The notes: a model not told the origin generated them from the letters alone. A stretch of 64,000 nt of DNA from an uncultured Campylobacterales bacterium (GCA_902727925.1 CACVAW010000010.1:72726-136725), one strand, 5' to 3'; counted from the first letter of the stretch, positions 1 through 15,110 are shown. Numbers and translations are program-made.

Positions 1-392
1 GTGGTGGAGCTGCACTTATAAAAGCAGCTTCGAATATATCTCTTGAGCTTGACGGTGATCAATTAATAGGTGCTGATATAGTTAAACGTGCCGTAACTGC
101 ACCTCTAAGACAAATATCACAAAACGCTGGATATGATGATGGCGTAGTTGTGAATAAAGTAAGCGAAAGCAAAGAAGCTAATTATGGATTTAACGCTGCA
201 ACTGGTGAATATGTAGATATGTTTGCAGCTGGTATAATTGATCCATTAAAAGTGGAAAGAATAGCTCTTAAAAATGCTGTAAGTGTATCAAGCTTACTTC
301 TTACAACTGAAGCAGCAGTAAGCGAAATACCAAAAGAAGAAGCTCACGCACCTGCTATGCCAGATATGGGCGGAATGCCAGGCATGATGTAA
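1..392 (+). CDS. groEL: Chaperonin GroEL, C-terminal fragment (5' end lies outside the window)
   Basis: Frame is open from nt 3 to TAA at 390-392. Translation reads ...[30 protein letters not shown]... and ends in the Gly/Met-rich tail [10 protein letters not shown] typical of GroEL. Confidence 0.95.
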
Positions 393-432
393 GAAGCGGA
401 AAAGAGCAAATTTCTTTGCTCTTTTCCGCTTC
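393..432 (+). terminator. Stem-loop directly after the groEL stop (18-bp perfect stem, 4-nt loop)
   Basis: GAAGCGGAAAAGAGCAAA-tttc-TTTGCTCTTTTCCGCTTC read directly. No clean U-tract follows, so terminator function is inferred from position only. Confidence 0.5.
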
Positions 433-444
433 GAACCGAACTAT
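409..444 (+). repeat. Direct repeat copy A (right arm of the groEL hairpin plus TCGAACCGAACTAT)
   Basis: aatttctttgctcttttccgcttcgaaccgaactat aligns with 544-578 at 31 of 36 positions with one indel. Confidence 0.85.
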
Positions 445-543
445 CGATGTATTAGCGTAGCGAATACCGATAGTCGGAACACCATAATGTCGCAAAAACT
501 TGTTTTTGCAATAAAAACACACGAACGGATATCAGAGAACATG

Positions 544-578
544 AATTTCTTCACTCTTTTCCGAGTCGAACCAACTAT
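544..578 (+). repeat. Direct repeat copy B of 409-444
   Basis: aatttcttcactcttttccgagtcgaaccaactat lies ~135 nt downstream of copy A in the same orientation. Confidence 0.85.
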
Positions 579-770
579 GCATAAATTTTCCTTATACATT
601 ATTTTGAACTGTTTCTAAGCTATTTCAATGTAGATTTACAAATCTTGTATGAATATTTTATATCTCTTCTTTTATCCTTCCTTAGTTTCTTTAATTAACT
701 CCACTTTTCTAAATCTATTTATCAAATAAACTAATTAGTCTTATTTCGCTAAAATATCTCATATTAAATA

Positions 771-3707
771 ATGAGGAATAATACTATTAACTTCACACAG
801 TATCACTCAAAATATTATGCTGAAATATTGACACTTCAAAGTAGTGCGAACTCTATTGACAGACTGTCTCAGTCAATCTTTAATGCTCAGATTGACTTGA
901 ACCCTCATCAAGTTGAAGCAGCTCTATTCGCTTTTAAGTCACCTTTGTCGAGTGGTGTTATATTAGCTGATGAAGTTGGACTGGGGAAGACAATAGAAGC
1001 TGGTCTTGTTCTTACTCAGTATTGGAGTGAGAGAAAAAGAAAGATTATTATCATAGCACCATCGAGTCTTAGAAAACAGTGGTCCATGGAGCTTAGAGAG
1101 AAATTCTTTTTAGATAGCTTCATCTTAGATGGTAAAAGCTACAAAGAAGAAATAGTAAAAGGCAATAAAAATCCTTTTGAACAAAAAGATAAGATAGTTA
1201 TCACTTCATACCAATTTGCTTCAAGACATAATGAAGCGATGTTTTTAGCAGATTTTCAACTAAGTGTTATTGATGAAGCTCACAAACTTAGGAACTACCA
1301 CAAAGGCGAAAAAGCAAAAATGTCATTTGCTATTGCCAATGCTTTGAGAGATACAAAAAAAGTATTACTCACAGCTACACCTCTTCAAAACTCTTTACTT
1401 GAAATATTTGGTCTTGTAAGTGTTATAGATGATTTTGTATTTGGAGATAAGAAGTCGTTTCAAAAACAATTCTCTTCAACTGCTTTAACCACAAGCGATA
1501 TGAACGACCTTAAAGATAGACTAAAACCAATAGTAAAAAGAACACTTAGAAAAGATGTCATTGAGTATATCAACTACACTAAGAGAATACCAATAGTAGA
1601 AGAATTTACACCCTCATATGAAGAAGTTGCTCTCTATGACTTAATCTCAGACTTTATACTTAATGAAGATTTATTCTCTATACCTCGTGCGCAAAGAAGT
1701 CTTATCACTTTAGTTGTTAGAAAACTACTTGCTTCATCTACTACTGCCATTATGGGAACACTTTCAACACTTATAAACCGACTTAGAAAAATGGTCGTTG
1801 AAAAGAAAATAACTCAAGAAGACAAGGTGAATGGCGAAGCCAGAGAAGGTAGCCTGGGCTATTTAAACTTTATAATAGATGATGAAGATGAACTGATAGA
1901 AGATTATCTTGAAGAAGAAAATGATACTCAACCTAAAATATCATTTCAAGAAGTTAGACTACTTGAAGAAGATGTTGAAGCTATTGAAAGAGAGATAGAA
2001 GAACTTGAAACATTTATAGAGTTAGCAAAAACCATAGAGATAGACACTAAGGCTAAATCACTTATGAGTGCTTTAACAAAAGGTTTTGAAGCTCAAAATA
2101 CTCTTGGAGTTAAAGACCAAAAAGCAATCATCTTTACGGAGAGCAGAAGAACTCAACAGTTTTTATTTGACTATCTTAGTGCTAATGGATTTTCAGAAAA
2201 GATAGTATTATTCAACGGAACAAATACAGACCCTAAGTCAAAAGAGATTTATAAAGCTTGGTTAGAAAAATATAAAGATAGTGATAGAGCAACTGGTGCC
2301 AAAAGTGCTGATATGAAACAAGCCATAGTAGATTACTTTAGAGAAACAGCTTCTATTATGATAGCGACTGAAGCAGGGAGTGAGGGTATAAACTTACAGT
2401 TTTGTAATATGCTAATAAACTATGACCTACCTTGGAACCCACAACGAATAGAACAAAGAATAGGTAGAGTTCATAGATATGGACAAAAGTTTGATGTAGT
2501 AGTTATCAACTTCTTAAATAAAAAGAATGCCGCAGATAGACGAGTATATGAGTTACTATCAACAAAGTTCAATCTATTTGAGGGTGTATTTGGTGCTTCT
2601 GATGAAGTGCTTGGAAGTATTGAAAGTGGAGTTGATTTTCAAGATAGAATATTAAAAATATATGAAACTTGTAGAGATGATAAAGCCATAGAAGAAGCCT
2701 TTAATATTCTTCAAGATGAGATGAGAGAGCAAATAGAAGAAACAACACTAAAAACAAGACAATCACTCTTAGATAACTTTGATGAAGATGTTCATCTAAG
2801 ATTAAAAGATACAGAGTTAAGAAGCAATGAAACAGTAGATAGATTTTCAACTATTTTCTGGGATATAACAAAAGCAGAACTAAATGATGCAGCTACATTT
2901 TATGATGAAAAACAAGAGTTTGAATATAAAGGTAATCACTACCAACTTATATCAGCTTCTAAAATAAATCCAAATCAAAATGCTCACACTTATAGACTAA
3001 ATAGTTCTCTTGGCGAAGAAGTAATTGATAGAGCAAAACAAAGAGAACTGAGACTTACTAAACTTATCTTTGACCTTACTCATAACAAATACAAAATATC
3101 TGTTCTTGATGACTACAATGGTAAAAGAGGTTTTCTTAGAGCTACTAAAGTATCTATACAGTCTTATGATACTGAAGAGTATGTAATCATTACAGCACTC
3201 ACAAGTGATTACAAACTGCTAAATGAAGAAGTAGCTACAAAGCTATTATCTCTTGAAGCCAAAGAAGATAATGGAAGAAATACAAAAGTTAATATTGACA
3301 CCAATGATACTGAAAAGTTAGAGTATGAATACATCAAACAAAAAGATATAATTCTAATAGAAAATGAAGCTACAAATCAAACTCATTTCATTAGCCAAAG
3401 TACCAAGCTATATAAGTGGGCTGAGGATAAATTAGCAAGTATTGAGAAAGAGCTAAAAGATACTAGGGGTAAAATCAAAGAGCTAAATCGCCAAAGTATA
3501 GTTACTCAAAGTATTACTCAACATTCAGATATACAGCTACAAATAAAAGCTCAAGAGAAGAAAAGAAGAAAAATACAAAGAGAAATTTTTGATATTGAAG
3601 AAGAGATTGAAGAACAAAGAGATGAATTGATAGAAGAACTCAAACTTGCTAAAGAACAAACGATTACAACAAATGAATTATTTACAATAGAGTGGGAGAT
3701 TATATAA
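771..3707 (+). CDS. SNF2/RapA-family helicase-like ATPase (DISARM DrmD-like), 978 aa
   Basis: Motif I ADEVGLGKT (about nt 978-992), motif II DEAH (1272-1283) and motif III LLTATPLQNSL. C-lobe motifs ATEAGSEGINLQ and YDLPWNPQRIEQRIGRVHRYGQ. Coiled-coil E/K-rich C-terminus. The stop TAA abuts the ATG of the next gene. Confidence 0.9.
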   Translation: MRNNTINFTQYHSKYYAEILTLQSSANSIDRLSQSIFNAQIDLNPHQVEAALFAFKSPLSSGVILADEVGLGKTIEAGLVLTQYWSERKRKIIIIAPSSLRKQWSMELREKFFLDSFILDGKSYKEEIVKGNKNPFEQKDKIVITSYQFASRHNEAMFLADFQLSVIDEAHKLRNYHKGEKAKMSFAIANALRDTKKVLLTATPLQNSLLEIFGLVSVIDDFVFGDKKSFQKQFSSTALTTSDMNDLKDRLKPIVKRTLRKDVIEYINYTKRIPIVEEFTPSYEEVALYDLISDFILNEDLFSIPRAQRSLITLVVRKLLASSTTAIMGTLSTLINRLRKMVVEKKITQEDKVNGEAREGSLGYLNFIIDDEDELIEDYLEEENDTQPKISFQEVRLLEEDVEAIEREIEELETFIELAKTIEIDTKAKSLMSALTKGFEAQNTLGVKDQKAIIFTESRRTQQFLFDYLSANGFSEKIVLFNGTNTDPKSKEIYKAWLEKYKDSDRATGAKSADMKQAIVDYFRETASIMIATEAGSEGINLQFCNMLINYDLPWNPQRIEQRIGRVHRYGQKFDVVVINFLNKKNAADRRVYELLSTKFNLFEGVFGASDEVLGSIESGVDFQDRILKIYETCRDDKAIEEAFNILQDEMREQIEETTLKTRQSLLDNFDEDVHLRLKDTELRSNETVDRFSTIFWDITKAELNDAATFYDEKQEFEYKGNHYQLISASKINPNQNAHTYRLNSSLGEEVIDRAKQRELRLTKLIFDLTHNKYKISVLDDYNGKRGFLRATKVSIQSYDTEEYVIITALTSDYKLLNEEVATKLLSLEAKEDNGRNTKVNIDTNDTEKLEYEYIKQKDIILIENEATNQTHFISQSTKLYKWAEDKLASIEKELKDTRGKIKELNRQSIVTQSITQHSDIQLQIKAQEKKRRKIQREIFDIEEEIEEQRDELIEELKLAKEQTITTNELFTIEWEII
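1821..1860 (+). repeat. GC-rich 40-nt in-frame repeat, copy 1 (encodes DKVNGEAREGSLGY)
   Basis: 33 of 40 nt match 4221-4260, including a 23-nt perfect core aaggtgaatggcgaagccagaga (1824-1846). 23 of 40 nt are G/C, set in AT-rich coding sequence. Confidence 0.95.
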
Positions 3708-6686
3708 ATGGCACAAACAGAAAATCAAAAGAAATTATTAAAAATACTAAACGAGATATTCCAACTTGACCAAAGTGATTTAGACTTTGGTATCTACCGT
3801 ATTATGAATACTAAGAGCAAAGAGATAAATGAGTTCTTAGATAAAGACCTTTTATCAAGTGTATCAAAGGCTTTTAGTTCAAACGATAACAGTGCTATTC
3901 AAAAAGAATTAGATGAGCTTATTAAAACTTTAACAAATGCTGGTATGAATGCCGATGACAGTCCTAAAGTTCAAGAGTTAAAAGATAGTTTATCTTCAAG
4001 TTCAACTTCTTCAAATCTTGAAAATGAAGTCTTTTCTCACTTAGCGAACTTCTTTAAGAGATACTATAAAGATGGGGATTTTGTAAGCCTTAGAAGATAC
4101 AAAAAAGATACTTATGCCATACCTTACGAGGGTGAAGAAGTAAAACTCCACTGGGCGAATAGCGACCAATACTATATAAAAAGTGGAGAGTATTTTAGAG
4201 ATTATACTTTTACTGTAAATGATAAGGTGAATGGCGAAGCCAGAGAGAATGCCCTGGGGTGCAAAACCATACACTTGAAACTTAGCGATGCCGAAACAGA
4301 GAGTAATAACAATAAAGCCACAAGTGATAAAGAGAGAAGATTTGTAGTCTTAGAAGATAATCCTTGTGAAGTGATAGATGATGAGTTATACATCAACTTT
4401 GAGTATAAAGCCATAGGTAAAGAGAACCAAGACAAGTTAAATGAAAAAGCTATTGCTAAAGCACTTGAAAGTATTGAAGATTTAGATTTTATCAGTGCTT
4501 TGAATACTTTAGCAGCAACAGAAAAAAATAAGAAACGAACTATTTTTGAAAAGCACTTGAAGAGCTATACAAGTAGAAATAGTTTTGACTACTTTATCCA
4601 TAAAGATTTAGGTGGATTCTTAGGTAGAGAGTTGGACTTCTATATCAAAAATGAAATGTTGTTTTTAGATGATATTATGGATAGTCCTATTAAATATGAT
4701 GAAGTGATGGGTAAGATTAAAATCTTTAAGAATGTTTCTCAAAAAATAATAGCATTTCTTACACAACTTGAAGAGCTACAAAAGAAGTTATGGGAAAAGA
4801 AAAAGTTTATCATAGAAACAAACTACTGTATCACTCTTGATAAAATAGAAGAGAAACATTATAGTCATATATTTGAGAACAAAGAACAGTTAGAAGAGTG
4901 GAAAATACTTTTTGATGTAGATGTTCAAAGTGTTGATGACTTGAAAAAAGAAAAATATTTACTTTTAGATACTAAGTTTTTTGATACAAAATTCAAATAC
5001 AAGCTACTTAGTCAGTTTGATAACCTTGATGAAGATATAGATGGAGTGCTTATCAACAGTGAAAATTTTGGAGCATTAAACTTACTTCAAGATAGATATA
5101 AAGAACAAGTCAAAACTGTATATATTGACCCACCTTACAATACTGGAAGTGATGGCTTTTTATATGCTGATACATATCAACATAGTTCTTGGATGAGTTT
5201 TATGTATGATAGATTGGCTTTGGGTAGAGAGTTAATGAGTGATGATGGGGTTATTTTTAGTAGTATTGATGATAAAGAACAGCATAATTTAAAAGTTATT
5301 AATGACTTGGTTTTTGGTATCAATAATTTTAATACTAATATTGGATGGCAAAAAAGATATACAAGGAGTAATAATACAATAGATTTTACAACCGTATTAG
5401 AATTTATATTAGTTTTTTCTAAAACAGATGATTTTATAGTGAATTTATTACCGAGAACTAAAGAAGCAGATGATAGATATACAAATCCTGATAAGGATAA
5501 AAGAGGTTCATGGAAAGGTGCTTCTTTTTTAAATCCTGCAACACCAAAAGAAAGACCTAATTTATGTTATCCAATTATTAATCCAAATACTAATATTGAA
5601 ACTAATCCAACAACTAATGCATGGAGACGCTCAAAAGAAGAATTTGCAAAATTATTAATAGAGAATAAATTATATTGGGGTATTGATGGAAAACAAGCAA
5701 TACCATCAATAAAAATGTTTTTGTCAGAAGCAAGAGGCTTGACACCAACTAATTTTTGGGAACATGGATATGCAGGAAATACCGATGAAGGAACTTTAGA
5801 TTTATTTAAACTATTTAATAATAAATTGTTTAATAATCCTAAGCCAATAAAACTTATTAAGCGAGTTTTTGAACATGGTTCAAATAAAAGTTCAACAGTC
5901 TTAGACTATTTCGCAGGTTCAGGAACAACAGGGAATGCCGTTATTAACTTAAACCGTGAAGATAATGGAACAAGAAAATATATCTTAGTTGAAATGGGAG
6001 AATATTTTGATAGTGTTACAAAGCCAAGAATACAAAAAGTAATTTACACAGACAGTTGGAAAGATGGCAAACCTCAAACTAAGAATGGTATATCTCAAAT
6101 CTTCAAATACTTCAAACTTGAAAGCTATGAAGACACTCTAAATAACCTTGAATTCAAAAGAACAAAAGAGCAAGAAGAAACGTTAGATATGTATGATAAA
6201 GCTAAAGATGATTATATACTCAACTACTCTTTGCGATTTGAGAGCCAAGCTTCACTGCTAAATATAGATACTTTCAAAACTCCATTTGATTATAAGCTCA
6301 AAATTGCTACTTCAAGTGTTGGCGAAACAAAAGATACTCCTGTTGATTTAGTAGAAACATTTAACTATCTTTTAGGTCTTGTTGTTAAGCGAATAGAACT
6401 ACTCTACCCCAAGGGTACTTCTTCGCAAGCTCAGGGCGAAAGCTACCTTGTAATAGAAGGGCAAAACCTTAAAAAAGAGAAAATCCTTATCATTTGGAGA
6501 GATGGTCAAAGTAGTGAAGAACTAAATGAGTTCTTCAAAAAAATGGATTGGTCTGTAAAGACAAGCGAGTTTGATACTATCTATGTAAATGGCGATAACA
6601 ACTTAGATAATCTTAGAAAAGATGAAGACCACTATAAAGTTAAGTTGATAGAGCAAGAGTTTAAAAAATTGATGTTTGGAGAATAA
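3708..6686 (+). CDS. Site-specific DNA methyltransferase, N6/N4 beta-class (type III Mod-like order) with a ~470-aa N-terminal extension, 992 aa
   Basis: Motif IV VYIDPPYNTG (DPPY at 5127-5138) precedes motif I DYFAGSGTTG (about 5910-5930), which is the beta-class order. The N-terminal ~470 aa have no motif I recognise. Confidence 0.9.
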   Translation: MAQTENQKKLLKILNEIFQLDQSDLDFGIYRIMNTKSKEINEFLDKDLLSSVSKAFSSNDNSAIQKELDELIKTLTNAGMNADDSPKVQELKDSLSSSSTSSNLENEVFSHLANFFKRYYKDGDFVSLRRYKKDTYAIPYEGEEVKLHWANSDQYYIKSGEYFRDYTFTVNDKVNGEARENALGCKTIHLKLSDAETESNNNKATSDKERRFVVLEDNPCEVIDDELYINFEYKAIGKENQDKLNEKAIAKALESIEDLDFISALNTLAATEKNKKRTIFEKHLKSYTSRNSFDYFIHKDLGGFLGRELDFYIKNEMLFLDDIMDSPIKYDEVMGKIKIFKNVSQKIIAFLTQLEELQKKLWEKKKFIIETNYCITLDKIEEKHYSHIFENKEQLEEWKILFDVDVQSVDDLKKEKYLLLDTKFFDTKFKYKLLSQFDNLDEDIDGVLINSENFGALNLLQDRYKEQVKTVYIDPPYNTGSDGFLYADTYQHSSWMSFMYDRLALGRELMSDDGVIFSSIDDKEQHNLKVINDLVFGINNFNTNIGWQKRYTRSNNTIDFTTVLEFILVFSKTDDFIVNLLPRTKEADDRYTNPDKDKRGSWKGASFLNPATPKERPNLCYPIINPNTNIETNPTTNAWRRSKEEFAKLLIENKLYWGIDGKQAIPSIKMFLSEARGLTPTNFWEHGYAGNTDEGTLDLFKLFNNKLFNNPKPIKLIKRVFEHGSNKSSTVLDYFAGSGTTGNAVINLNREDNGTRKYILVEMGEYFDSVTKPRIQKVIYTDSWKDGKPQTKNGISQIFKYFKLESYEDTLNNLEFKRTKEQEETLDMYDKAKDDYILNYSLRFESQASLLNIDTFKTPFDYKLKIATSSVGETKDTPVDLVETFNYLLGLVVKRIELLYPKGTSSQAQGESYLVIEGQNLKKEKILIIWRDGQSSEELNEFFKKMDWSVKTSEFDTIYVNGDNNLDNLRKDEDHYKVKLIEQEFKKLMFGE
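4221..4260 (+). repeat. GC-rich 40-nt in-frame repeat, copy 2 (encodes DKVNGEARENALGC)
   Basis: Same 23-nt perfect core at 4224-4246. It sits exactly 2400 bp downstream of copy 1, in the same codon phase. Confidence 0.95.
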
Positions 6687-6687
6687 A

Positions 6688-9273
6688 ATGAATGATAAAT
6701 TTATAAATGGCTCACAATGGGTCAGGTTTGATTGCCATTTACATACAGATAGTGATAATGAGTTTAAATATAATGAAGATAAAAATTATTATATTAGCTC
6801 TTATGTAAATAAATTAAAAGAAAAAAATATTTCTGTTGGAGTTATAACAAATCATAATAAATTTAATTTAGAAGAATTTAAAGCTATTAAAAAAACTGCA
6901 AACAAAAAAGATATATTTGTTATGCCAGGTGTGGAACTATCAGTAAATGATGGAGCAAATGGGATTCATACTCTTATAGTCTTTGATGAAAAAGAATGGT
7001 TAGAAGATGGCAATAATTATATTCAGCAGTTTATTGATGAATCTTTTGTAACTCAAAATCCAAATAATTATCAAAATGAAAATGGAAGAAGTAATGATAA
7101 TCTAATAACTACAATAAAAAAATTAAATGATTATCATAGAGGCTATTTTATTATATTAGCTCATGTTGAAGATAAAAGTGGATTTTTCAATGCATTAGAA
7201 GGTGGAAGAGTTACGGAATTTGGTAAAAACAAGCTATTTAGAGATAGTGTTATAGGTTTTCAAAAAGTTAGAACACGAGATAATATAATAAAGTGGAATA
7301 AATGGCTAGATAATAATTTACCTGCTTTTGTTGAAGGTTCAGATCCTAAAAAAATAGAAGAGATTGGTAAAGGCAAAAAATCATATATCAAGATTGGCGA
7401 TTATAATTTTGAAGCTGTAAAGTTTGCATTACAAGATAATAAGTATAGAGTAAGTAAAGAAACTCAAAATAGAGAAAACTCATTTATTAAATCTATTGCA
7501 TTTGATGGTGGTAAACTAAATGGACAGATAATAGAACTCTCTTCATCTATGAATAATCTTGTAGGGGTTAGGGGTAGTGGAAAATCATCTATAATTGAAG
7601 CTGTTAGATATGGATTAGATTTACCATTTGGAAGTAATAGTGTAGATATTGATTATAAAAATAATTTAGTAAAAGAACTGCTTGGAAGTGCAGGAAAAAT
7701 ATCTATTAAAGCTATAGATAAGGATGATAGAGAGTATCTTATAGAGCGAGTTTATGGACATAGCTTAGAAATAAAAAAAGATGGCGAACTTAAAAATGTC
7801 GGTATTTTGTCAATTTTAAATAAACCTCTATACTTTGGACAAAAAGATTTATCAAGTTATAAAAGTGGTTTTGAGGGAGACCTAATCAATAAATTGATTG
7901 GAGATAAAACAAAAGATATTCAAGTTAGTATTGATGTTAAAAAGCAAGAAGTGAAGTCATTACTTGAAAATATAAAAAAGTATGATAATTTAGATGATAA
8001 AAAAGAAGAGATAACGAGAAAAATCGCAGAGCTCAACTTGAAAATTGATGAGTTTAAAAAACATAAAATAGAAGAGAAATTACAAAAACAGATAGAGTTT
8101 AATAAAGATAAGACTTCTTTGCAAAGTATTAAAAAAAGGCTAAAAGAGTTTAGAAGTGATGTTGATGAATTTTTGTCACAATATGAAAAAGAGAATTTCT
8201 TTGAAAAAATGAAAAATTATGAGTCAAAAGAAAATCAAGATACATTTGATGAAATTTACAAAATTGTTGATGAGACTGAAAAAAGTTTTATAGATATTAC
8301 AGCTGGACTTCATAAATTAATTAATAGTTTTAAAAATATTAATGGTATTGAAAATGATTTTAATACTAAAGCTAAAGAATTAGAGGTTGAGTTTCTTGAA
8401 ATCCAAAGAGAGATAAGCATTCCTAATTTAAGAGCAGATGACTTTATGACTTATACAAAATCTTTACATACACAAAAGATGATGTTGGCTGAGTTAGAAA
8501 AGTCAGGGGCAATAAAAAAAGATATGAATAGCAAACTTGTAAAGCTATTGTCAGAACTTAATGATTTGTATAGAGAAGAGTTCAAAATTATTGAGGTAGA
8601 AATAAACAAAATCAATAGCACTCAAAAGTTTATAAAATTAAAGTCTGAATTTAAAGGAGACAAATCATCTTTTGAACAGTATTTAAAAAATATTTTTGGT
8701 GGAAGTGGTTTAGGTAAGGCTGATTATGAAAAATTATGTACCTATGTAGATTGTAGTGAAGTTTACAATGATTTTGAAAATATTTCATTTGGTGGTAATA
8801 AATTATTAGTATTTAGAGAAAGATTTATGAATTCACTATCTTCGTTATTAACTTTTAAAGTTCCGAATAAAATTGAAATTTTTTATAATGGAAAAGAGTT
8901 AACTAAACATTCACTTGGTCAAAGGTCATCTGCTTTAATTATATTTATATTAACACAGCAAGATAACGACATAATAGTAATCGACCAACCAGAAGATGAT
9001 TTAGATAATCAAACTATTTACAATGAAGTTATAAAAGAGTTAGTTAAACTAAAAAATAAGACTCAGTTTATATTTGCAACACACAATGCAAACATACCAG
9101 TTTTAGGAGATTGTGAACAGATAGTTGTGTGTGATTATGATGAAAATAAAATCAATACAGAGCTTGGAAGTATAGATAACCACGACATTCAAGAGAAGAT
9201 AATAAATATTATGGAGGGCGGAGAAGAAGCCTTTGATAAAAGAAGGGAGATATATAATTTATGGAAACATTAG
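6688..9273 (+). CDS. PHP-domain phosphoesterase fused to a coiled-coil SMC/Rad50-like ABC ATPase
   Basis: N-terminal PHP-like His/Asp/Glu motifs: CHLHTD (about 6733-6750), ITNHN, PGVELS, GIHTLIVF, LAHVED. Walker A GVRGSGKSS (about 7564-7590), then a ~300-aa K/E-rich coiled-coil-like insert, then SLGQRS, Walker B IVIDQPEDDLD (about 8977-9006) and FATHNANI. I prefer ATG 6688 (GGAG 6 nt upstream, 1 nt after the methylase stop) over the track's TTG 6676. Confidence 0.8.
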   Translation: MNDKFINGSQWVRFDCHLHTDSDNEFKYNEDKNYYISSYVNKLKEKNISVGVITNHNKFNLEEFKAIKKTANKKDIFVMPGVELSVNDGANGIHTLIVFDEKEWLEDGNNYIQQFIDESFVTQNPNNYQNENGRSNDNLITTIKKLNDYHRGYFIILAHVEDKSGFFNALEGGRVTEFGKNKLFRDSVIGFQKVRTRDNIIKWNKWLDNNLPAFVEGSDPKKIEEIGKGKKSYIKIGDYNFEAVKFALQDNKYRVSKETQNRENSFIKSIAFDGGKLNGQIIELSSSMNNLVGVRGSGKSSIIEAVRYGLDLPFGSNSVDIDYKNNLVKELLGSAGKISIKAIDKDDREYLIERVYGHSLEIKKDGELKNVGILSILNKPLYFGQKDLSSYKSGFEGDLINKLIGDKTKDIQVSIDVKKQEVKSLLENIKKYDNLDDKKEEITRKIAELNLKIDEFKKHKIEEKLQKQIEFNKDKTSLQSIKKRLKEFRSDVDEFLSQYEKENFFEKMKNYESKENQDTFDEIYKIVDETEKSFIDITAGLHKLINSFKNINGIENDFNTKAKELEVEFLEIQREISIPNLRADDFMTYTKSLHTQKMMLAELEKSGAIKKDMNSKLVKLLSELNDLYREEFKIIEVEINKINSTQKFIKLKSEFKGDKSSFEQYLKNIFGGSGLGKADYEKLCTYVDCSEVYNDFENISFGGNKLLVFRERFMNSLSSLLTFKVPNKIEIFYNGKELTKHSLGQRSSALIIFILTQQDNDIIVIDQPEDDLDNQTIYNEVIKELVKLKNKTQFIFATHNANIPVLGDCEQIVVCDYDENKINTELGSIDNHDIQEKIINIMEGGEEAFDKRREIYNLWKH

Positions 9274-10418
9274 AATTAATTGAAAGAATTTCAAATGGGG
9301 AAGATAGTTATACTCAGTTTAAAGAAAACATAACTAATAATGATAAATTAGCGGAGGAATTAGTTGCTTTTTCAAATTCAAAGGGTGGTGTATTGATTAT
9401 TGGAGTTACTGATAATAACGATATAGCTGGTCTTAGTGATGATGATATTAGACGATTAAATCAACTGGTAGGAAATGTAATTAATTCTAATATAACACCT
9501 CCTATATATCCTATTACAGAAATCAAAATAATTGAACAAAAAAAATTGTTAATAGTTACTGTAGAAGATGGAAGTAATAAACCATACTCTACTAATAAAG
9601 GTATATATCTAACTAAAGCAGGTAGTGATAAAAGAAAAGTTTCACCAGAAGAATTAAAAAGATTATTTGCAGAGTCAAAAAGATTATATGCTGATGAAGA
9701 AATAGTTGTAGGTAGCGATATTAGTGATTTAAATAGTGAACAATTTTATAATTTTTTAGAAAAAGATGATAGTAAAATTTATGAAGAAGTAAAACAAGAC
9801 ACTCTAAGTCTTTCAAGTGTTTTAGAAAATCGTGAGTTATTAAGAAATGACCAATTAACATTAGCAGGAAATTTAATATTTGGTATGAACCCACAAAAGT
9901 ATAATACTTCATTTTATGTAGATTGTGTATATTTTGATGGAGATGAAATATCAGTAGATAAATTTATCTCTAAAAAGACTCTCAAAGGAAGTTTTGAAAA
10001 ATTATTTAATGATAGTTTAGCTTTTGTTGTTAGTAATTTGACTAAAAAACAAGTTGATGATGAGTTTAATACTAAGGGAGAGCTTGAAGTAGATGAACGA
10101 GTATTAACAGAGTTAATCGTAAATGCTTTAGTTCATAGGGATTACTATATTAACTCTTCTATTAAAATTTTTATGTTTCATAATCGTATAGAAATAGTTA
10201 GTCCAGGGAAGTTAACAAATTCTTTAACGGTTGATAAAATTAAGAGTGGTATATCAATTCATAGAAACCCAATCTTAAACTCAATATGTAAAACGGTGTT
10301 GCCATATAGTGGTTATGGGAGTGGTATTAAACGGGCAATTGGTATAAATCCAAGTATTGAATTTATAAACGATATTGATAAAGAAGAGTTTAAGTGTATT
10401 ATTCCAAGAGAAGTGTAG
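9261..10418 (+). CDS. Schlafen/AlbA_2-type putative DNA-binding protein with a C-terminal HATPase_c_4-like region (often annotated RecG-like regulator)
   Basis: N-terminal GEDSYTQFKE...VAFSNSKGGVLIIGV matches the AlbA_2 pattern (E-x-x-x-[EQ]-F-K ... N-x-x-G-G-x-[IL]-x-[IL]-G-[IV]). C-terminal LIVNALVHRDYYINSSIKIFMFHNRIEIVSPGKL is the typical HRDY...PG block. Its ATG overlaps the upstream gene by 13 nt. Confidence 0.7.
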   Translation: METLELIERISNGEDSYTQFKENITNNDKLAEELVAFSNSKGGVLIIGVTDNNDIAGLSDDDIRRLNQLVGNVINSNITPPIYPITEIKIIEQKKLLIVTVEDGSNKPYSTNKGIYLTKAGSDKRKVSPEELKRLFAESKRLYADEEIVVGSDISDLNSEQFYNFLEKDDSKIYEEVKQDTLSLSSVLENRELLRNDQLTLAGNLIFGMNPQKYNTSFYVDCVYFDGDEISVDKFISKKTLKGSFEKLFNDSLAFVVSNLTKKQVDDEFNTKGELEVDERVLTELIVNALVHRDYYINSSIKIFMFHNRIEIVSPGKLTNSLTVDKIKSGISIHRNPILNSICKTVLPYSGYGSGIKRAIGINPSIEFINDIDKEEFKCIIPREV

Positions 10419-10421
10419 ATA

Positions 10422-13400
10422 ATGAAATTTAATGAAAAATTAGTATTAAATTCATACCTATTATCACTTTTAGGTGTAGAAAATTTTGAAGAGTTAGCTA
10501 AAGACTTAAAAGCTTCACGACTTGAAGAGCTTGATGAAAATGATAACTCACTTTTCTATCACGAGTTAAAAGATAAACTTGTAAGCACTCACAAAATCAT
10601 TAGCGATGATAAGCTTCAAGAGTATGATGAAAATATTGTAAGACACACCAAAACTATGGGTCGTGGTATAAAGTGGAAATATTTTCAATACCTATCACTT
10701 CTGTTTATTGAGATTTATTTAGATAAATATTTTGATGATAAAGAACAACTTCTTGAAGACCTAAATATATATCTAAGAGAGTTTAATACAGACATAGATA
10801 AAAAAGAGAAGCTTACAGAATACAATGAAACAGAGTTAAATAAATTAGCTCTATACAATGCTACTGGGTCTGGTAAAACTTTATTACTTCAAATGAACAT
10901 ATTACAGTTTAATCATTATGCTAAAGGTAAAATCAAAATTAATAAAACAGTTTTGATTACTCCTAATGAGGGATTGTCAAATCAACATTTAGAAGAGTTC
11001 AAAGCTTCAAACATAGAAGCAGAAATATTTGATAAAAACAGACAGAACACACTTGTGAATAGTGCTATTGAAATTATTGAAACAACAAAGCTTGGAGATG
11101 AAACTAAAGATAAAACGATTGCTGTTGATAGTTTTGAAGATAATAATTTAGTTTTTATAGATGAAGGACATAATGGAGTAAAAGGCGAAGTAAGAAAAGA
11201 GAACAGAGATAAGCTAAGTGAAAATGGTTTTGCTTTTGAATACTCAGCAACTTTTGCTCAAGCAATAAATAGTGCTGCTGGAACAAAGAAAAAAGAGCTT
11301 GAAAATGAATATACAAAAGCTATTATATTTGATTATAGCTATAAGTATTTTTATAATGATGGCTATGGTAAAGACTATTCAATACTTAACCTAAGTGAAG
11401 ATAGTGATGACATAAAACAGACTTACTTAACAGCTGCACTTCTTAGCTTTTATCAACAGATGAAAATCTATGAGAGTTCAAAGACAACACTAAAGCCTTA
11501 TCTTATTGAAAAGCCTTTGATGGTATTTGTTGGTTCAAGTGTAAATGCCGTTAGAACAGAGAGCAAAAAGCAAGTGTCTGATGTAGTTGATGTATTGTTA
11601 TTTATAGATGAGTTTATCAAGAGTAAGAGTGAAAGTATTGCTAATATAGATAAAATAATGAGCTTTGATAGTGGTCTTCGTAATTCTAAAGGAGTAGATA
11701 TATTTGAGAACAAGTTTAGTTTTTTAGAAAATACAAAACTAAATGCTGCTCAACTGTTTGATGATATGTTAAATCTTATCTTTAATGCAACAAACGGAAC
11801 TCTTCATATAGAGAACCTAAAAGGTGTCGATGGAGAGATAGCCCTTCGTATTGGAGAGAATGAATACTTTGGTGTTATCAATGTAGGCGATAGTCAAAGC
11901 CTTGTAAAGTTATGTGAAGCAAATGGTATGAGTATAGCAAGTAGAGATTTTTCAAGCTCACTGTTTAAGACTATAAATGATACTACTTCAAATCTAAATA
12001 TACTTGTAGGTTCAAAGAAGTTTAGTGAAGGTTGGAGTTCTTGGAGAGTATCCACTATGGGGCTTATGAATATAGGTAAAAAAGAGGGTTCTCAGATTAT
12101 TCAACTATTTGGTCGTGGTGTTAGATTAAAGGGTTATGACTTTTGCTTGAAAAGAAGTAGAGCTATTAGAGGTAAAGAGCTGATGCGAAAATATCAAGCA
12201 GTTGAAACATTAAATATATTTGGACTAAAAGCTGATTATATGAAAGCTTTTAAGGACTACCTAAAAGATGAGGGTGTTCCTACTGATGAGAGAGTTGAAT
12301 TTGTTTTACCTTTGATTTATGATAAAAGCTACAAAACTAAAAAGTTAAAAGTGTTAGACCTTCAAGTTGGTAAAAATTACAAAAAAGAAGTTAAACTTGA
12401 TTTAGAATATAGTGATATTAGAGGTATTAGTAAGAAAGTAGTTCTTAGCTTGTATAAACAAGTTGATATATTAGAGAGTGAAAGCAGAACTGGAAATAAG
12501 TATGATTTAAACAGCGAGATACTCGATAAAGTTCATCTTAGCTTTATGAGTATTGATAATATATTTTTCGCACTACAACAATTCAAAAATGAAAAAAGTT
12601 GGAGTAATCTGAATATCTCAAAAGATGATGTAAATGATTTAATCAATAGAAATGATTGGTATAAACTATTTATTCCAAGCGATGATATGAAAGTAAGTAG
12701 CTTCAAAAATATTTCTAACTTTGAACAGATAATGATTACACTACTTAAAAAGTATATGAAGTCATTTTATGAGTATAAAAAGAGTGAGTGGGAGAGCCAA
12801 TTTTTAGAATATAGAGAATTGGACGAGACAAAGGATACTTCAAACTTAATAGACAACTATACCATTACAGTAGAAGACAAAGAAATAGAGCTTATAGAGA
12901 GGTTAGAAGCTCTTAGAACTATGCTTGAGAGTGGTGTTATAGATGATGCTGAACTTCACAGACTATCTAAGAAAGATTTTAAGGCTTTTAGATTTGATAA
13001 ACACCTATACAATCCACTTGTATTCAAAGACAGAGGTGAAACAGCTCTACAAATAAAACCAATAGAGCTAAACGATGGCGAAAAAGATTTTGTGGAAGAT
13101 TTAGATAGCTACTTGAAACGAAATGGCTCTACTTATGAAGATACAGAGATATATCTACTAAGAAACCAAAGTAAAACAGGACTTGGATTTTTCACAGAGG
13201 GTAATTTCTACCCCGACTTCATTATGTGGATAAAAAAAGATGAAAAACAATATATTAGTTTTATAGACCCTAAAGGGATAAGAAACTTAAACCCAAGTAA
13301 TGACCCAAAAATTAATTTATCAAAAAAAATCAAAGAGATTGAAAATAATCTTGGAGATACGAATATAATATTAAACTCTTTTATAGTTTCTAATACATCA

Positions 13401-13526
13401 TATAATGATATTTTAGACTTACATAATAATATTTCATTAGAAGAATTAGAAGATAAAAATGTGTTATTCCAGCAAGATGATAAGAATGGTTATATTGGTA
13501 AAATGTTTAGTAAGGTATTGAGTTAA
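10422..13526 (+). CDS. Type III Res-like DExH helicase with a C-terminal PD-(D/E)xK nuclease motif, 1034 aa
   Basis: Walker A NATGSGKT (about 10860-10880), motif II FIDEGH (11160-11171), motif III YSATF, FSEGWS, and motif VI QLFGRGVR. C-terminus reads YPDF...(17 aa)...FIDPKG (13211-13274), a PD...DxK pattern. Starts 3 nt after the upstream stop. Confidence 0.8.
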   Translation: MKFNEKLVLNSYLLSLLGVENFEELAKDLKASRLEELDENDNSLFYHELKDKLVSTHKIISDDKLQEYDENIVRHTKTMGRGIKWKYFQYLSLLFIEIYLDKYFDDKEQLLEDLNIYLREFNTDIDKKEKLTEYNETELNKLALYNATGSGKTLLLQMNILQFNHYAKGKIKINKTVLITPNEGLSNQHLEEFKASNIEAEIFDKNRQNTLVNSAIEIIETTKLGDETKDKTIAVDSFEDNNLVFIDEGHNGVKGEVRKENRDKLSENGFAFEYSATFAQAINSAAGTKKKELENEYTKAIIFDYSYKYFYNDGYGKDYSILNLSEDSDDIKQTYLTAALLSFYQQMKIYESSKTTLKPYLIEKPLMVFVGSSVNAVRTESKKQVSDVVDVLLFIDEFIKSKSESIANIDKIMSFDSGLRNSKGVDIFENKFSFLENTKLNAAQLFDDMLNLIFNATNGTLHIENLKGVDGEIALRIGENEYFGVINVGDSQSLVKLCEANGMSIASRDFSSSLFKTINDTTSNLNILVGSKKFSEGWSSWRVSTMGLMNIGKKEGSQIIQLFGRGVRLKGYDFCLKRSRAIRGKELMRKYQAVETLNIFGLKADYMKAFKDYLKDEGVPTDERVEFVLPLIYDKSYKTKKLKVLDLQVGKNYKKEVKLDLEYSDIRGISKKVVLSLYKQVDILESESRTGNKYDLNSEILDKVHLSFMSIDNIFFALQQFKNEKSWSNLNISKDDVNDLINRNDWYKLFIPSDDMKVSSFKNISNFEQIMITLLKKYMKSFYEYKKSEWESQFLEYRELDETKDTSNLIDNYTITVEDKEIELIERLEALRTMLESGVIDDAELHRLSKKDFKAFRFDKHLYNPLVFKDRGETALQIKPIELNDGEKDFVEDLDSYLKRNGSTYEDTEIYLLRNQSKTGLGFFTEGNFYPDFIMWIKKDEKQYISFIDPKGIRNLNPSNDPKINLSKKIKEIENNLGDTNIILNSFIVSNTSYNDILDLHNNISLEELEDKNVLFQQDDKNGYIGKMFSKVLS

Positions 13527-13730: not shown

Positions 13731-14201
13731 ATGAAGAAATTAAACTTTTCGGTACTCTTGGCTGGTGTTGCCTTATTTATGGCTTTTGGGATGACTTCTC
13801 TTAGTGCTTGTGCTACTAAAACAGAAACTAAATGTGGATCTGAGAAAATCACTAAATGTGATTCTGGGAAATGTGGTAAAGCAGAGAGAAAAACTAAAAA
13901 ATGTGACAAGTCTAAAAAATGTGATTACAAAAAGAAATGTGATAAGTCTAAAAAGTGTGACTACAAAAAGAAATGTGACAAGTCTAAAAAGTGTGACTAC
14001 AAAAAGAAATGTGATAAGTCTAAAAAGTGTGACTACAAAAAGAAATGTGACAAATCTAAAAAGTGTGACTACAAAAAGAAGTGTGACAAGTCTAAAAAAT
14101 GTGACTACAAAAAGAAATGTGACAAATCTAAAAAGTGTGACTACAAAAAGAAATGTGACAAATCTAAAAAAAGCGATAAATCTAGATTAAATATGTTTTA
14201 A
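13731..14201 (+). CDS. Cys/Lys-rich repeat lipoprotein (KCDKSKKCDYKK x7), HvfA-like low-complexity precursor-type protein
   Basis: Signal peptide MKKLNFSVLLAGVALFMAFGMTSLSAC carries the lipobox L-S-A-C. It is followed by KCGSEKITKCDSGKCG, seven exact 12-aa repeats, and the tail SRLNMF. RBS-like aaagga lies upstream. Confidence 0.75.
   Translation: MKKLNFSVLLAGVALFMAFGMTSLSACATKTETKCGSEKITKCDSGKCGKAERKTKKCDKSKKCDYKKKCDKSKKCDYKKKCDKSKKCDYKKKCDKSKKCDYKKKCDKSKKCDYKKKCDKSKKCDYKKKCDKSKKCDYKKKCDKSKKSDKSRLNMF
13899..14150 (+). repeat. 36-bp in-frame tandem repeat, 7 full copies (a partial 8th extends to ~14171)
   Basis: Copies start at 13899, 13935, 13971, 14007, 14043, 14079 and 14115. They differ only at gac/gat and aaa/aag wobble positions. 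Confidence 0.95.
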
Positions 14202-14388
14202 TCTTAGTAGAGGTGGGTTCTATACTCATCTCTATACCAATATATTCTATATACTCCTTTCTTAAACACAATATTAACAAAACTTCAGAATAAACATTTA
14301 ACCATCCTAATAATACAAGGTCTAGGTATGTATACTTAATTACTATTTTTTAGATAGAATATTGATGTATAAAATTAAAAGGACAGAA

Positions 14389-14748
14389 ATGAAAAAATTA
14401 AATTTTTCGTTATTATTCGTTGGAGTTGCTTTATTTATAGGTCTTGGTATAACCACTCTTAGTGCTTGTGGCAGTAAAAGTGGTGATGCTAAATGTGGTT
14501 CTGATAAAGTAACTAAATGTGATAGTGGAAAATGTGGAGCTTCTAAAAAAGCTACAAAATGTGGAAGTAAATGTGGTGATGCAAAATGTGCTTCAGACAA
14601 ATCTTCAAAATGTGGTGATGCTAAATGTGGCGCTAAAAAAGCTACTAAGTGTGGAACTGCTAAATGTGGTACAGAAAGCAAAGCAGCTACAAAATGTGGT
14701 GCTGGTAAATGTGGAAGTGACAAAGAATCTAAATTAGATATGTTTTAA
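14389..14748 (+). CDS. Cys-rich KCG-repeat lipoprotein, paralogue of 13731-14201 (HvfA-like)
   Basis: MKKLNFSLLFVGVALFIGLGITTLSAC (lipobox) is followed by 12 K-C-[GDA] motifs and the tail SKLDMF. I prefer ATG 14389 (aaaagga upstream) over the track start 14362, because it aligns with the paralogue's N-terminus. Confidence 0.75.
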   Translation: MKKLNFSLLFVGVALFIGLGITTLSACGSKSGDAKCGSDKVTKCDSGKCGASKKATKCGSKCGDAKCASDKSSKCGDAKCGAKKATKCGTAKCGTESKAATKCGAGKCGSDKESKLDMF

Positions 14749-14754
14749 TTTTTT

Positions 14755-14780
14755 TAAGGAGTGACATTGTTCACTCCTTA
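14755..14780. terminator. Stem-loop shared by convergent genes (10-bp stem)
   Basis: TAAGGAGTGA-cattgt-TCACTCCTTA is preceded by a T-run on the + strand. It sits 7 nt after the KCG gene stop and overlaps the end of the extended minus-strand frame. Confidence 0.5.
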
Positions 14781-15110
14781 GTCTAGTTTATTAAGAGCTT
14801 TTAAAGTTTCTACCTTCACATTATCAATATCTTTTATAATTAAGTTTACACTCGTTTGATTGATCTCAATATTTTCCCAATTATCTTCCTACGTATTTAG
14901 TAGTTTGTTTGTGATTGACGGAATTGGCTGGGCTAGTACTTTTGACAAATCTGAAATTGTAAGCATATAGCTCCATCCGACAATAGCGTTTCCTTTGTTA
15001 TCATATCTTTTTAGAAATACAAGTTGTTGAAGTTTATTGAGCTTTGAGATAATCTCAAACGAAGCATTTCTTTGATTTCTGTTATGTTCTGTTATGTTCT
15101 GTTTTTTCAT
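14778..15110 (-). pseudogene. Small orphan ORF interrupted by an in-frame TAG (73 codons + TAG + 36 codons)
   Basis: The track ORF 14889-15110 ends at TAG (14889-14891). The same frame stays open for 36 more codons (EDNWENIEINQTSVNLIIKDIDNVKVETLKALNKLD) up to TAA at 14778-14780 in the terminator hairpin. A 10-bp tandem duplication cagaacataa x2 lies near the 5' end. Confidence 0.3.

Follow-up and report, generated by a model that had tools for sequence, protein, structure and literature searches.

A type III-like SNF2-Mod-Res operon carrying a TrlF-TrlG pair in an uncultured Campylobacterales bacterium

We analyzed a 64,000-nucleotide (nt) stretch of DNA from an uncultured Campylobacterales bacterium (GCA_902727925.1, CACVAW010000010.1:72726-136725), hereafter called the window, in which five genes occupy positions 771-13526; all coordinates given for this operon and its surroundings are positions in the window. 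An initial annotation had read these genes as a single five-gene defence operon. We propose that the locus is probably a nested composite, in which an outer, type III-like restriction-modification (R-M) system consisting of an SNF2-family ATPase, a Mod-like methyltransferase and a Res-like helicase-nuclease carries an inner TrlF-TrlG pair (TrlFG) in a slot between its mod and res genes.

The five genes and their products

The operon consists of the following genes:

771-3707, + strand: gene 1, SNF2-family ATPase, 978 amino acids (aa)
3708-6686, + strand: gene 2, Mod-like N6-adenine methyltransferase, 992 aa
6688-9273, + strand: gene 3, TrlF, 861 aa
9261-10418, + strand: gene 4, TrlG, 385 aa
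10422-13526, + strand: gene 5, Res-like helicase-nuclease, 1034 aa

The stop codon TAA of the SNF2 gene abuts the ATG of the mod-like gene at 3707/3708, 1 nt lies between the mod-like gene and trlF (6686/6688), trlF and trlG overlap by 13 nt (9261-9273), and 3 nt lie between trlG and the res-like gene (10418/10422). The start of gene 3 is ATG 6688 (MNDKF..., as in homologues, with GGAG 8 nt upstream), not the alternative TTG 6676, and purine-rich, GGAG- or AGGGAG-like stretches are found a few nt 5' of genes 3 and 4. Terminator-like sites composed of a hairpin plus T residues are weak within the operon, where 4 were found and 4.5 are expected from shuffled sequences, and the earliest strong terminator-like hairpin lies 3' of the operon at 14754-14781. 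The initial annotation had described five same-strand open reading frames (ORFs) with coupled junctions and without an internal terminator hairpin, and its coordinates and overlaps were all reproduced. The five genes are co-transcribed and their arrangement is genuine; it is not due to chance, because Aliarcobacter cryaerophilus CP134854.1 (locus L001) has all five in an identical order, with 50-68% aa identity.

The product of gene 1 possesses the motifs GLGKT70, DEAH168 and QRIGRVHRYGQ562 and matches the Pfam families SNF2-rel_dom (1.2e-35) and Helicase_C (9e-18). Its best match among the PADLOC models is DrmD (PDLC02619, 3.9e-205), and its score against the NCBIfam model DISARM_DrmD_b is 687 bits, which is under the equivalog cutoff of 950. 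The closest solved structure found in the PDB is that of RapA. The C-terminal ~280 aa are without an annotated domain, and the last ~100 of them are, by eye, rich in Glu and Lys.

In the product of gene 2, the motif order is that of a beta-class methyltransferase, with DPPY474 ahead of FAGSG735, and residues 468-767 match N6_N4_Mtase (PF01555, 8e-37). This protein is also matched by the PADLOC model MTase_III (PDLC03646, 2.5e-225) and, in the PDB, by a type III Mod (6k0w, 2.6e-45) and the Mod of EcoP15I (4zcf_A, 3.3e-33). A comparison with a classical type III Mod gave 32% identity (E=2e-51). As judged from its sequence, gene 2 thus encodes a bona fide, beta-class homologue of type III Mod. 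Its N-terminal extension of ~430 aa and its C-terminal ~220 aa contain no recognisable domain.

The Res-like protein contains GSGKT149, DEGH247, SAT275 and QLFGRGVR561, followed by a predicted PD-(D/E)xK nuclease motif (PD931...DPK949), and the helicase motifs and the PD931...D949-x-K951 set are unchanged in 16 homologues. It matches the PADLOC model REase_III (PDLC03654, 3.8e-203) and, weakly, Pfam ResIII (2.5e-7), while searches of the PDB with its sequence and with a profile returned no match. Similarity to classical Res (RE_endonuc) was detected at the motif level only, and the protein is, by this comparison, highly divergent from Res of the EcoP15I type. Its AlphaFold2 (AF2) model, built from an alignment of 16 sequences, has a pLDDT (predicted local distance difference test) of 49.7, is confident only in the segment of residues ~900-1034 and was not used for a fold search; the order of strands and helices in that C-terminal segment is compatible with a PD-(D/E)xK core. 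The Res family comprises 857 clusters at E<=1e-30 in a library clustered at 50% identity. A permissive Pfam scan of the unannotated parts of the five proteins (both ends of Mod, the C-terminus of SNF2, the N-terminus and C-terminal ~460 residues of Res, and the TrlG linker) revealed nothing credible.

TrlF is predicted to consist of an N-terminal PHP phosphoesterase domain and an SMC/Rad50-like ABC ATPase that contains a long helical insert. It aligns end to end with the NCBIfam model TrlF_fam_ATP (NF045780) at 524 bits (cutoff 350) and contains HLH17, GVRGSGKS293 and IIVIDQPE762. Its Pfam matches to PHP, AAA_23 and SMC_N are weak, and PDB searches, by sequence and by profile, matched nothing but SMC/Rad50 heads. 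Residues compatible with PHP metal ligands, the Walker A and B motifs, an LGQR signature and the H-loop are unchanged down to 43% identity. TrlG matches SLFN_AlbA_2 (residues 14-127, 5.6e-24) and HATPase_c_4 (residues 299-360, 2.5e-12), a GHKL-like domain, contains HRDY292 and aligns over 99% of its length with TrlG of the Yersinia ruckeri plasmid pYR3 at 43.8% identity. Its AF2 model (pLDDT 82) was matched in Foldseek by 3lmm (2e-17), the N-domain of human SLFN14 (1.7e-4) and the ATP-binding domains of histidine kinases and PDK. No helix-turn-helix (HTH) domain was recognisable in TrlG with Pfam or Foldseek.

These matches assign genes 3 and 4 to the TRL family, as members of the already described TrlF-TrlG pair. 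The trlR-trlF-trlG genes of Photorhabdus laumondii were named the temperature restriction locus (TRL), and the TRL operon stops growth of P. laumondii at 36 C; substitutions, stops or insertion sequence (IS) insertions in trlG, as well as deletion of the operon, lift this block (Hapeshi et al., 2020; PMC7554251). The AlbA_2 (~14-128) and HATPase_c_4 (~298-365) domains of Photorhabdus TrlG are found at nearly the same positions as those of the window protein, and pYR3 was listed among the replicons carrying a syntenic TRL (PMC7554251). No later papers on the mechanism of TRL were found in a literature search. The motifs quoted in the initial annotation are all present at sensible positions, and the domain calls of Pfam, PADLOC and NCBIfam agree with it, including its methylation-based, type III-like Mod/Res core to which SNF2 and a second ATPase/nuclease module have been added. 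That annotation had also regarded the PHP-SMC ATPase and the AlbA_2 protein as parts of a novel composition; the domains were right, but the two proteins are the known pair. It could name no described system of this five-gene composition, in agreement with our searches of the PADLOC and NCBIfam models, which returned no named system covering all five genes.

A conserved SNF2-Mod-Res triad and its cargo slots

In a survey of a species-representative genome set with a Res profile, at least 518 relatives were verified by tblastn in the candidate stretches that were scanned. The best 80 of these loci constitute the Res-anchored sample, in which the five window proteins were placed by tblastn. Mod is 5' of Res in all 62 loci with room for it, and SNF2 is 5' of Mod in 50 of the 57 evaluable loci (88%), with a gap of <=120 nt between the two genes in 38/53 loci. 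The triad proteins are ~43-48% identical to those of the window (median ~45%), are found in the same order and on the same strand, and come from Planctomycetota, Chloroflexota, Bacillota, Acidobacteriota, Verrucomicrobiota, Bacteroidota and one metagenome-assembled genome (MAG) labelled archaeal. The identities of the triad members to their window counterparts covary (r=0.95 for all triads and 0.32 among distant ones). No conserved fourth gene was found 5' of SNF2 or 3' of Res in the 80 loci, and the genes 3' of the triads are housekeeping genes mixed with assorted defence genes. SNF2-Mod-Res is therefore a conserved triad that spans phyla.

A bare triad, with a small HTH gene in front of it, is also carried by pEC316_2, a conjugative IncF plasmid of Escherichia coli, and bare triads are found in 2 of 5,426 complete E. 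coli genomes. No match to the HTH controller of pEC316_2 turned up 5' of SNF2, either in the window or in the 48 triad loci searched for it. REBASE and PADLOC evidently list Mod and Res already as putative type III proteins; within the library covered and the terms used, we found no literature that names or tests SNF2-Mod-Res, the relevant papers being those on Photorhabdus TRL and on DISARM and ARMADA.

The junction between Mod and Res is a variable cargo slot. Among the 76 evaluable loci of the Res-anchored sample, Mod and Res are separated by <=120 nt in 41 and by >400 nt in 33. A second slot exists between SNF2 and Mod, where the gap is >400 nt in 13 of 53 loci. Genes encoding Fic_N+Fic proteins occur in 8 loci, counting both slots together, and those for an AAA_21/AAA_15 ATPase with DUF4276 in 5. 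The other Mod|Res inserts include RhuM, GmrSD, AIPR, OLD-like, Abi_C and bAvd/23S-IVP genes and an IS element, while PIN, Mrr_cat, GmrSD (GmrSD_N), AIPR, OLD-like and Fic genes occupy the SNF2|Mod slot. TrlG-like inserts are found in L004, L009, L011 and L046, the last of which has slot occupants with winged HTH (wHTH) domains. Where the Mod|Res gap could be evaluated (76 Res-anchored loci), the complete TrlF+TrlG pair was never found. The slot of L007, an Arcobacteraceae MAG, holds a Fic gene, an IS element with a DDE transposase and two TrlG fragments (5720-10011 of that locus), which looks like a trlG gene broken by IS insertion beside a second cargo gene.

Distribution of the TrlF-TrlG pair and flanks of the operon

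Survey of metagenome contigs with a TrlF profile yielded at least 369 relatives, and 80 TrlF-anchored loci were examined. TrlG lies immediately 3' of TrlF in 74 of the 77 evaluable metagenomic loci. The Mod/Res family of the window is absent from 78 of the 80 loci, the exceptions being L121 and L103. In L121 (JGI Ga0208375_1000088, 7-11740), the order is SNF2-Mod-Res-TrlF-TrlG, with 35-42% identity to the window proteins, so that the pair follows Res. Two further contigs hold part of the window's arrangement: L003, from JGI, has Mod-TrlF-TrlG-Res without SNF2, and L002, from ENA, has TrlF-TrlG alone among toxin-antitoxin and other defence genes. The L002 proteins are 72% and 78% identical to those of the window, and this stand-alone pair is nearer to the window's pair than is the embedded pair of L001.

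The nearest 5' ORF is on the same strand as the pair in 59 of 65 loci and is often less than 100 nt away. Among 49 such same-strand neighbours, matches were found to N6_N4_Mtase (9), N6_Mtase/MmeI/Eco57I (5), ResIII (6), SNF2 (4) and HsdR (2), and many of the neighbours are parts of R-M or BREX systems. On the 3' side (n=28), the neighbours include classical Res with RE_endonuc (4-5), DUF1156 (3), PglZ (2) and HsdS (1). For instance, the pair lies between a classical type III Mod and a Res unrelated to that of the window in L105, L108, L122 and L133. TrlFG is thus a separately mobile module that is repeatedly nested in methylation-based defence operons, because the pair is found within type III, type I and BREX-like operons and also occurs alone. 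The initial annotation had treated the five genes as one system. As a unit they do not travel together (0/76 Res-anchored loci; the window's Mod/Res family absent at 78/80 TrlF loci), so that the five-gene unit fails, and what holds is its two sub-units, the triad and TrlFG, each of which does travel together.

The pair is also plasmid-borne. On the Klebsiella pneumoniae IncC plasmid pNDM-KN (NC_019153.1, 2411-13181), a type I operon has the order hsdR-trlF-trlG-hsdS-AAA-hsdM, in which neighbouring genes overlap by 4-19 nt, and two accessory modules are thereby nested in one hsd operon of a clinical NDM plasmid. TrlFG was also found on other plasmids of Klebsiella, E. coli and the Pseudomonas syringae group. 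The Listeria monocytogenes plasmid pLM6179 (NZ_HG813250.1, 6998-9586) carries a TrlF-family gene (43% identity) without TrlG, followed by a recombinase gene and ~2 kb 5' of the heat-resistance gene clpL, a curious proximity, as TRL takes its name from temperature restriction.

The flanks of the window operon are housekeeping genes, namely the 3' end of groEL upstream and genes for an aldo-keto reductase, a DHH phosphoesterase and an ABC-F protein downstream. The features upstream of the operon are as follows:

150-392, strand not stated: 3' end of groEL (Cpn60 C-terminus), ORF match
393-770, no strand: AT-rich intergenic region between the groEL 3' end and the SNF2 gene

Region 393-770 presumably holds the operon promoter; the promoter scan gave results not above shuffle expectation, and neither an ORF of >=60 aa nor an HTH controller gene was found in the region. 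G+C content is 26-31% in the operon, 34% in the first and ninth 2-kb windows and ~28% in the 2 kb just downstream. A tRNA scan of the window found none, and no integrase was found at the border of the island. Unlike the L001 operon, that of the window directly follows groEL without integrase or tRNA. In L001, genes for DUF932, Sipho_Gp157, Rad52/Rad22, DUF2958 and YagK/YfjJ_C proteins lie 5' of the operon (556-4185), which suggests that the A. cryaerophilus operon is carried on an integrated mobile element.

Two small paralogous ORFs, with features of repeat lipoproteins, lie directly 3' of the window operon, before the aldo-keto reductase gene (13731-14201 and 14362-14748, both + strand), and the hairpin at 14754-14781 comes next. 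Both ORFs open with a lipoprotein-type signal peptide (...LSAC), continue with Cys/Lys-rich tandem repeats and have no Pfam match. The repeat of the first ORF is KKCDKSKKCDYK, in ~8 copies, and the repeats of the second are KCG-rich.

Relation to known systems and proposed function

The outer part of the locus resembles type III R-M systems in that Mod is homologous to that of EcoP15I and is encoded 5' of Res in one operon, Res combines an SF2 ATPase at its N-terminus with a C-terminal PD-(D/E)xK motif, and the PADLOC type III models match both at ~e-200. Type III enzymes hemimethylate asymmetric sites, and their cleavage depends on ATP and on two unmodified sites. The locus differs from type III systems in having SNF2 as a third gene, so that it is not a two-gene unit, in a Mod that is ~350 aa longer than those of the EcoP15I type, and in a Mod|Res junction that serves as a cargo slot. 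It could still be asked whether the locus is an ordinary two-gene type III system in which SNF2, TrlF and TrlG are unlinked passengers of a defence island. Mod is indeed a type III homologue, the REBASE-derived PADLOC models fit both Mod and Res, and SNF2 is missing from 7 of 57 loci. Linkage of SNF2 to Mod in the other 50, its close spacing in 38/53 and the covarying identities of the triad members go far beyond defence-island co-location, and we rejected a plain two-gene type III assignment on the 88% linkage of SNF2; this explanation is very improbable.

The SNF2 gene invites comparison with two other systems. Class 1 DISARM has a core of the helicase DrmA, the DUF1998 protein DrmB and the PLD protein DrmC, to which the SNF2 protein DrmD and the methylase DrmMI (pfam13659) are added (bioRxiv 10.1101/2021.12.28.474362). 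ARMADA consists of the SNF2 protein ArmA, the PglX-like methylase ArmB and ArmC, a YprA/DUF1998 helicase with a C-terminal Vsr domain, with or without ArmD, and Walker A and B mutants of ArmA lose ARMADA defence (bioRxiv 10.1101/2025.09.15.676423). The window operon likewise places an adenine methylase after SNF2 and a large helicase(-nuclease) effector after both, and its SNF2 protein is nearest to the DrmD_b and BrxH models. The order SNF2-adenine methylase, which is the signature of class 1 DISARM and ARMADA, and the DrmD match (3.9e-205; 687 bits) would fit a divergent class 1 DISARM or ARMADA in which a Res-like protein has taken the place of DrmABC or ArmC. Nevertheless, the effector is a ResIII-type helicase with a PD-(D/E)xK motif and without YprA/DUF1998, PLD or Vsr domains. 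Searches of the five proteins and of the flanking ORFs returned no DrmA, DrmB or DrmC domain, which bears out the initial annotation's view that the locus is not DISARM, and a YprA/DrmA helicase, DUF1998 and PLD are missing from the operon and its housekeeping flanks alike. The methylase is of the PF01555 Mod type, neither pfam13659 nor PglX-like, and DrmMI models were absent among the best 25 of its 35 PADLOC matches. Furthermore, the SNF2 score is under the DrmD_b cutoff, and no conserved fourth or fifth gene accompanies the triad in 80 loci. DISARM was therefore rejected for want of DrmA, DrmB and DrmC, its different methylase family and an SNF2 score of 687 bits against 950, and ARMADA because the YprA/DUF1998 helicase and the PglX-like methylase are missing; derivation from either is unlikely, though less so than the two-gene explanation. 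Hma and MADS were also rejected, for lack of components or for scores under the cutoff.

The inner part shares with TRL of Photorhabdus a TrlF that passes the equivalog cutoff, an identical TrlG architecture and a trlG that follows trlF with a short overlap. The window operon has no trlR, as the mod-like gene lies directly 5' of trlF with no small ORF between them, and its pair is embedded between mod and res. Growth restriction at raised temperature that depends on trlG is known from Photorhabdus alone. TrlF also resembles Ppl in combining PHP with an SMC-like ATPase, and the Ppl models match it weakly, though significantly (PADLOC 3e-37, NCBIfam 9e-46). Ppl acts alone, whereas TrlF is nearly always found with TrlG, and an assignment to Ppl was rejected because the Ppl_antiphage score is 156 bits against a cutoff of 1000.

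Is the operon instead a single integrated machine of five components, every one of which is needed? Such a machine is suggested by the four tight junctions, which are consistent with translational coupling, by the five-gene order of A. cryaerophilus and the Mod-TrlF-TrlG-Res order of L003, and by the position of TrlFG between Mod and Res of an unrelated type III family as well. It is at odds with the Res-anchored sample, in which the pair is found at 0 of 76 loci, half of which have Mod abutting Res and the rest other cargo. It is likewise at odds with the TrlF-anchored loci, 78 of 80 of which are without the window's Mod/Res family, and with the stand-alone L002 pair, which is closer to the window's than the embedded L001 pair. 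We regard an integrated machine as improbable, although it is the alternative to which we give the most weight. We give the least weight to the idea that TrlF-TrlG is a regulatory or maintenance module of the host R-M system, acting as a controller or addiction device and not as an effector. In its favour, annotations as HTH transcriptional regulators are widespread among AlbA_2/HATPase_c_4 proteins, some slot occupants have wHTH domains (L046), and the pair is embedded in many types of R-M system. The window TrlG, however, has no recognisable HTH, the PHP catalytic set of TrlF, an ATPase of 861 aa, is conserved, the pair is found without R-M in L002 and Photorhabdus, and the growth arrest of Photorhabdus needs TrlG.

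Several observations weigh against the nested composite that we prefer. The relation of Res to EcoP15I-type Res does not extend beyond motifs, and TrlF and Ppl are only distantly related (156 bits against 1000). SNF2 is not strictly required, as the seven loci without it include the close relatives L003 and L004. The five-gene form has been kept at 50-68% identity in two Campylobacterota lineages, and this persistence leaves room for TrlFG to be partly integrated with the triad in function. Nor is the TrlFG pair absolutely obligate. L004, L009 and L011, from Sulfurimonas, Sulfurovum and Campylobacterota MAGs, have a TrlG-like protein (60-65% identical) between Mod and Res without TrlF, and TrlF is found without TrlG in the Mod|Res slot of L031 (Planctomycetaceae) and on Listeria plasmids.

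In the nested composite, Mod would methylate host DNA at its recognition sites to form N6-methyladenine as a self mark, and Res, presumably in complex with Mod, would cut incoming DNA that lacks the mark. We infer this type III mechanism from the homology of Mod and the architecture of Res; it is proposed by analogy, because Res has no detectable relation to EcoP15I-type Res beyond motifs. SNF2 may be a near-constant accessory translocase on double-stranded DNA that acts with Mod and Res, by analogy to DrmD/DrmMI of class 1 DISARM and ArmA/ArmB of ARMADA, in which the effector is a different helicase-nuclease. TrlF-TrlG would act as a second-line module, either degrading nucleic acid or arresting growth, with TrlG contributing a putative Schlafen-type nucleic-acid-binding or nuclease domain and a GHKL-like ATP-binding domain and TrlF a predicted metal-dependent PHP phosphoesterase and an ATPase. 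TrlFG is most likely a toxic or nuclease second-line effector, as suggested by the conservation of its PHP and ABC ATPase sites, the resemblance of the TrlG fold to Schlafen, the growth arrest in Photorhabdus and the other genes that occupy the slot.

PrrC is encoded in the EcoprrI type I locus, where the R-M complex silences it and an anti-restriction factor releases it. Like PrrC and RloC in hsd operons, TrlFG is a separately evolving, putative effector between modification and restriction genes with which it is co-transcribed, and related loci carry other abortive-infection-type genes in the same slot. The protein families are different, and silencing and release are known for PrrC only, so that carrying them over to the window is pure inference. 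TrlFG would be co-expressed with the R-M genes and might be restrained by the R-M complex, as PrrC is in EcoprrI; such gating is speculation by analogy.

A broader reading, which we put forward only tentatively, is that SNF2-Mod-Res is a distinct, unnamed, phylum-spanning and plasmid-borne defence family that links type III R-M to DISARM and ARMADA, with the SNF2 translocase as a working partner of the type III-like methylase and the highly divergent helicase-nuclease, and that its Mod|Res slot is dedicated to docking interchangeable second-line effectors (TrlFG, Fic, OLD-like, GmrSD, AIPR and AAA_21+DUF4276) licensed by the state of the R-M complex.

If the triad acts as a unit, the SNF2-methylase pairing of DISARM and ARMADA would also serve a type III-like restriction enzyme. 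If true, this would point towards SNF2 translocases having a general role in methylation-based immunity, a role that is unexplained in DISARM. The locus also gives TrlF-TrlG, which is common on clinical plasmids of Klebsiella, E. coli and Pseudomonas and has so far been known only for temperature restriction, a plausible job as an R-M-embedded second-line module, and the slot between mod and res is a practical hunting ground for new defence genes. Most worth pursuing are the conserved triad and its cargo slots, and the link between TrlFG and R-M suggests a testable function for a poorly understood, plasmid-borne pair.

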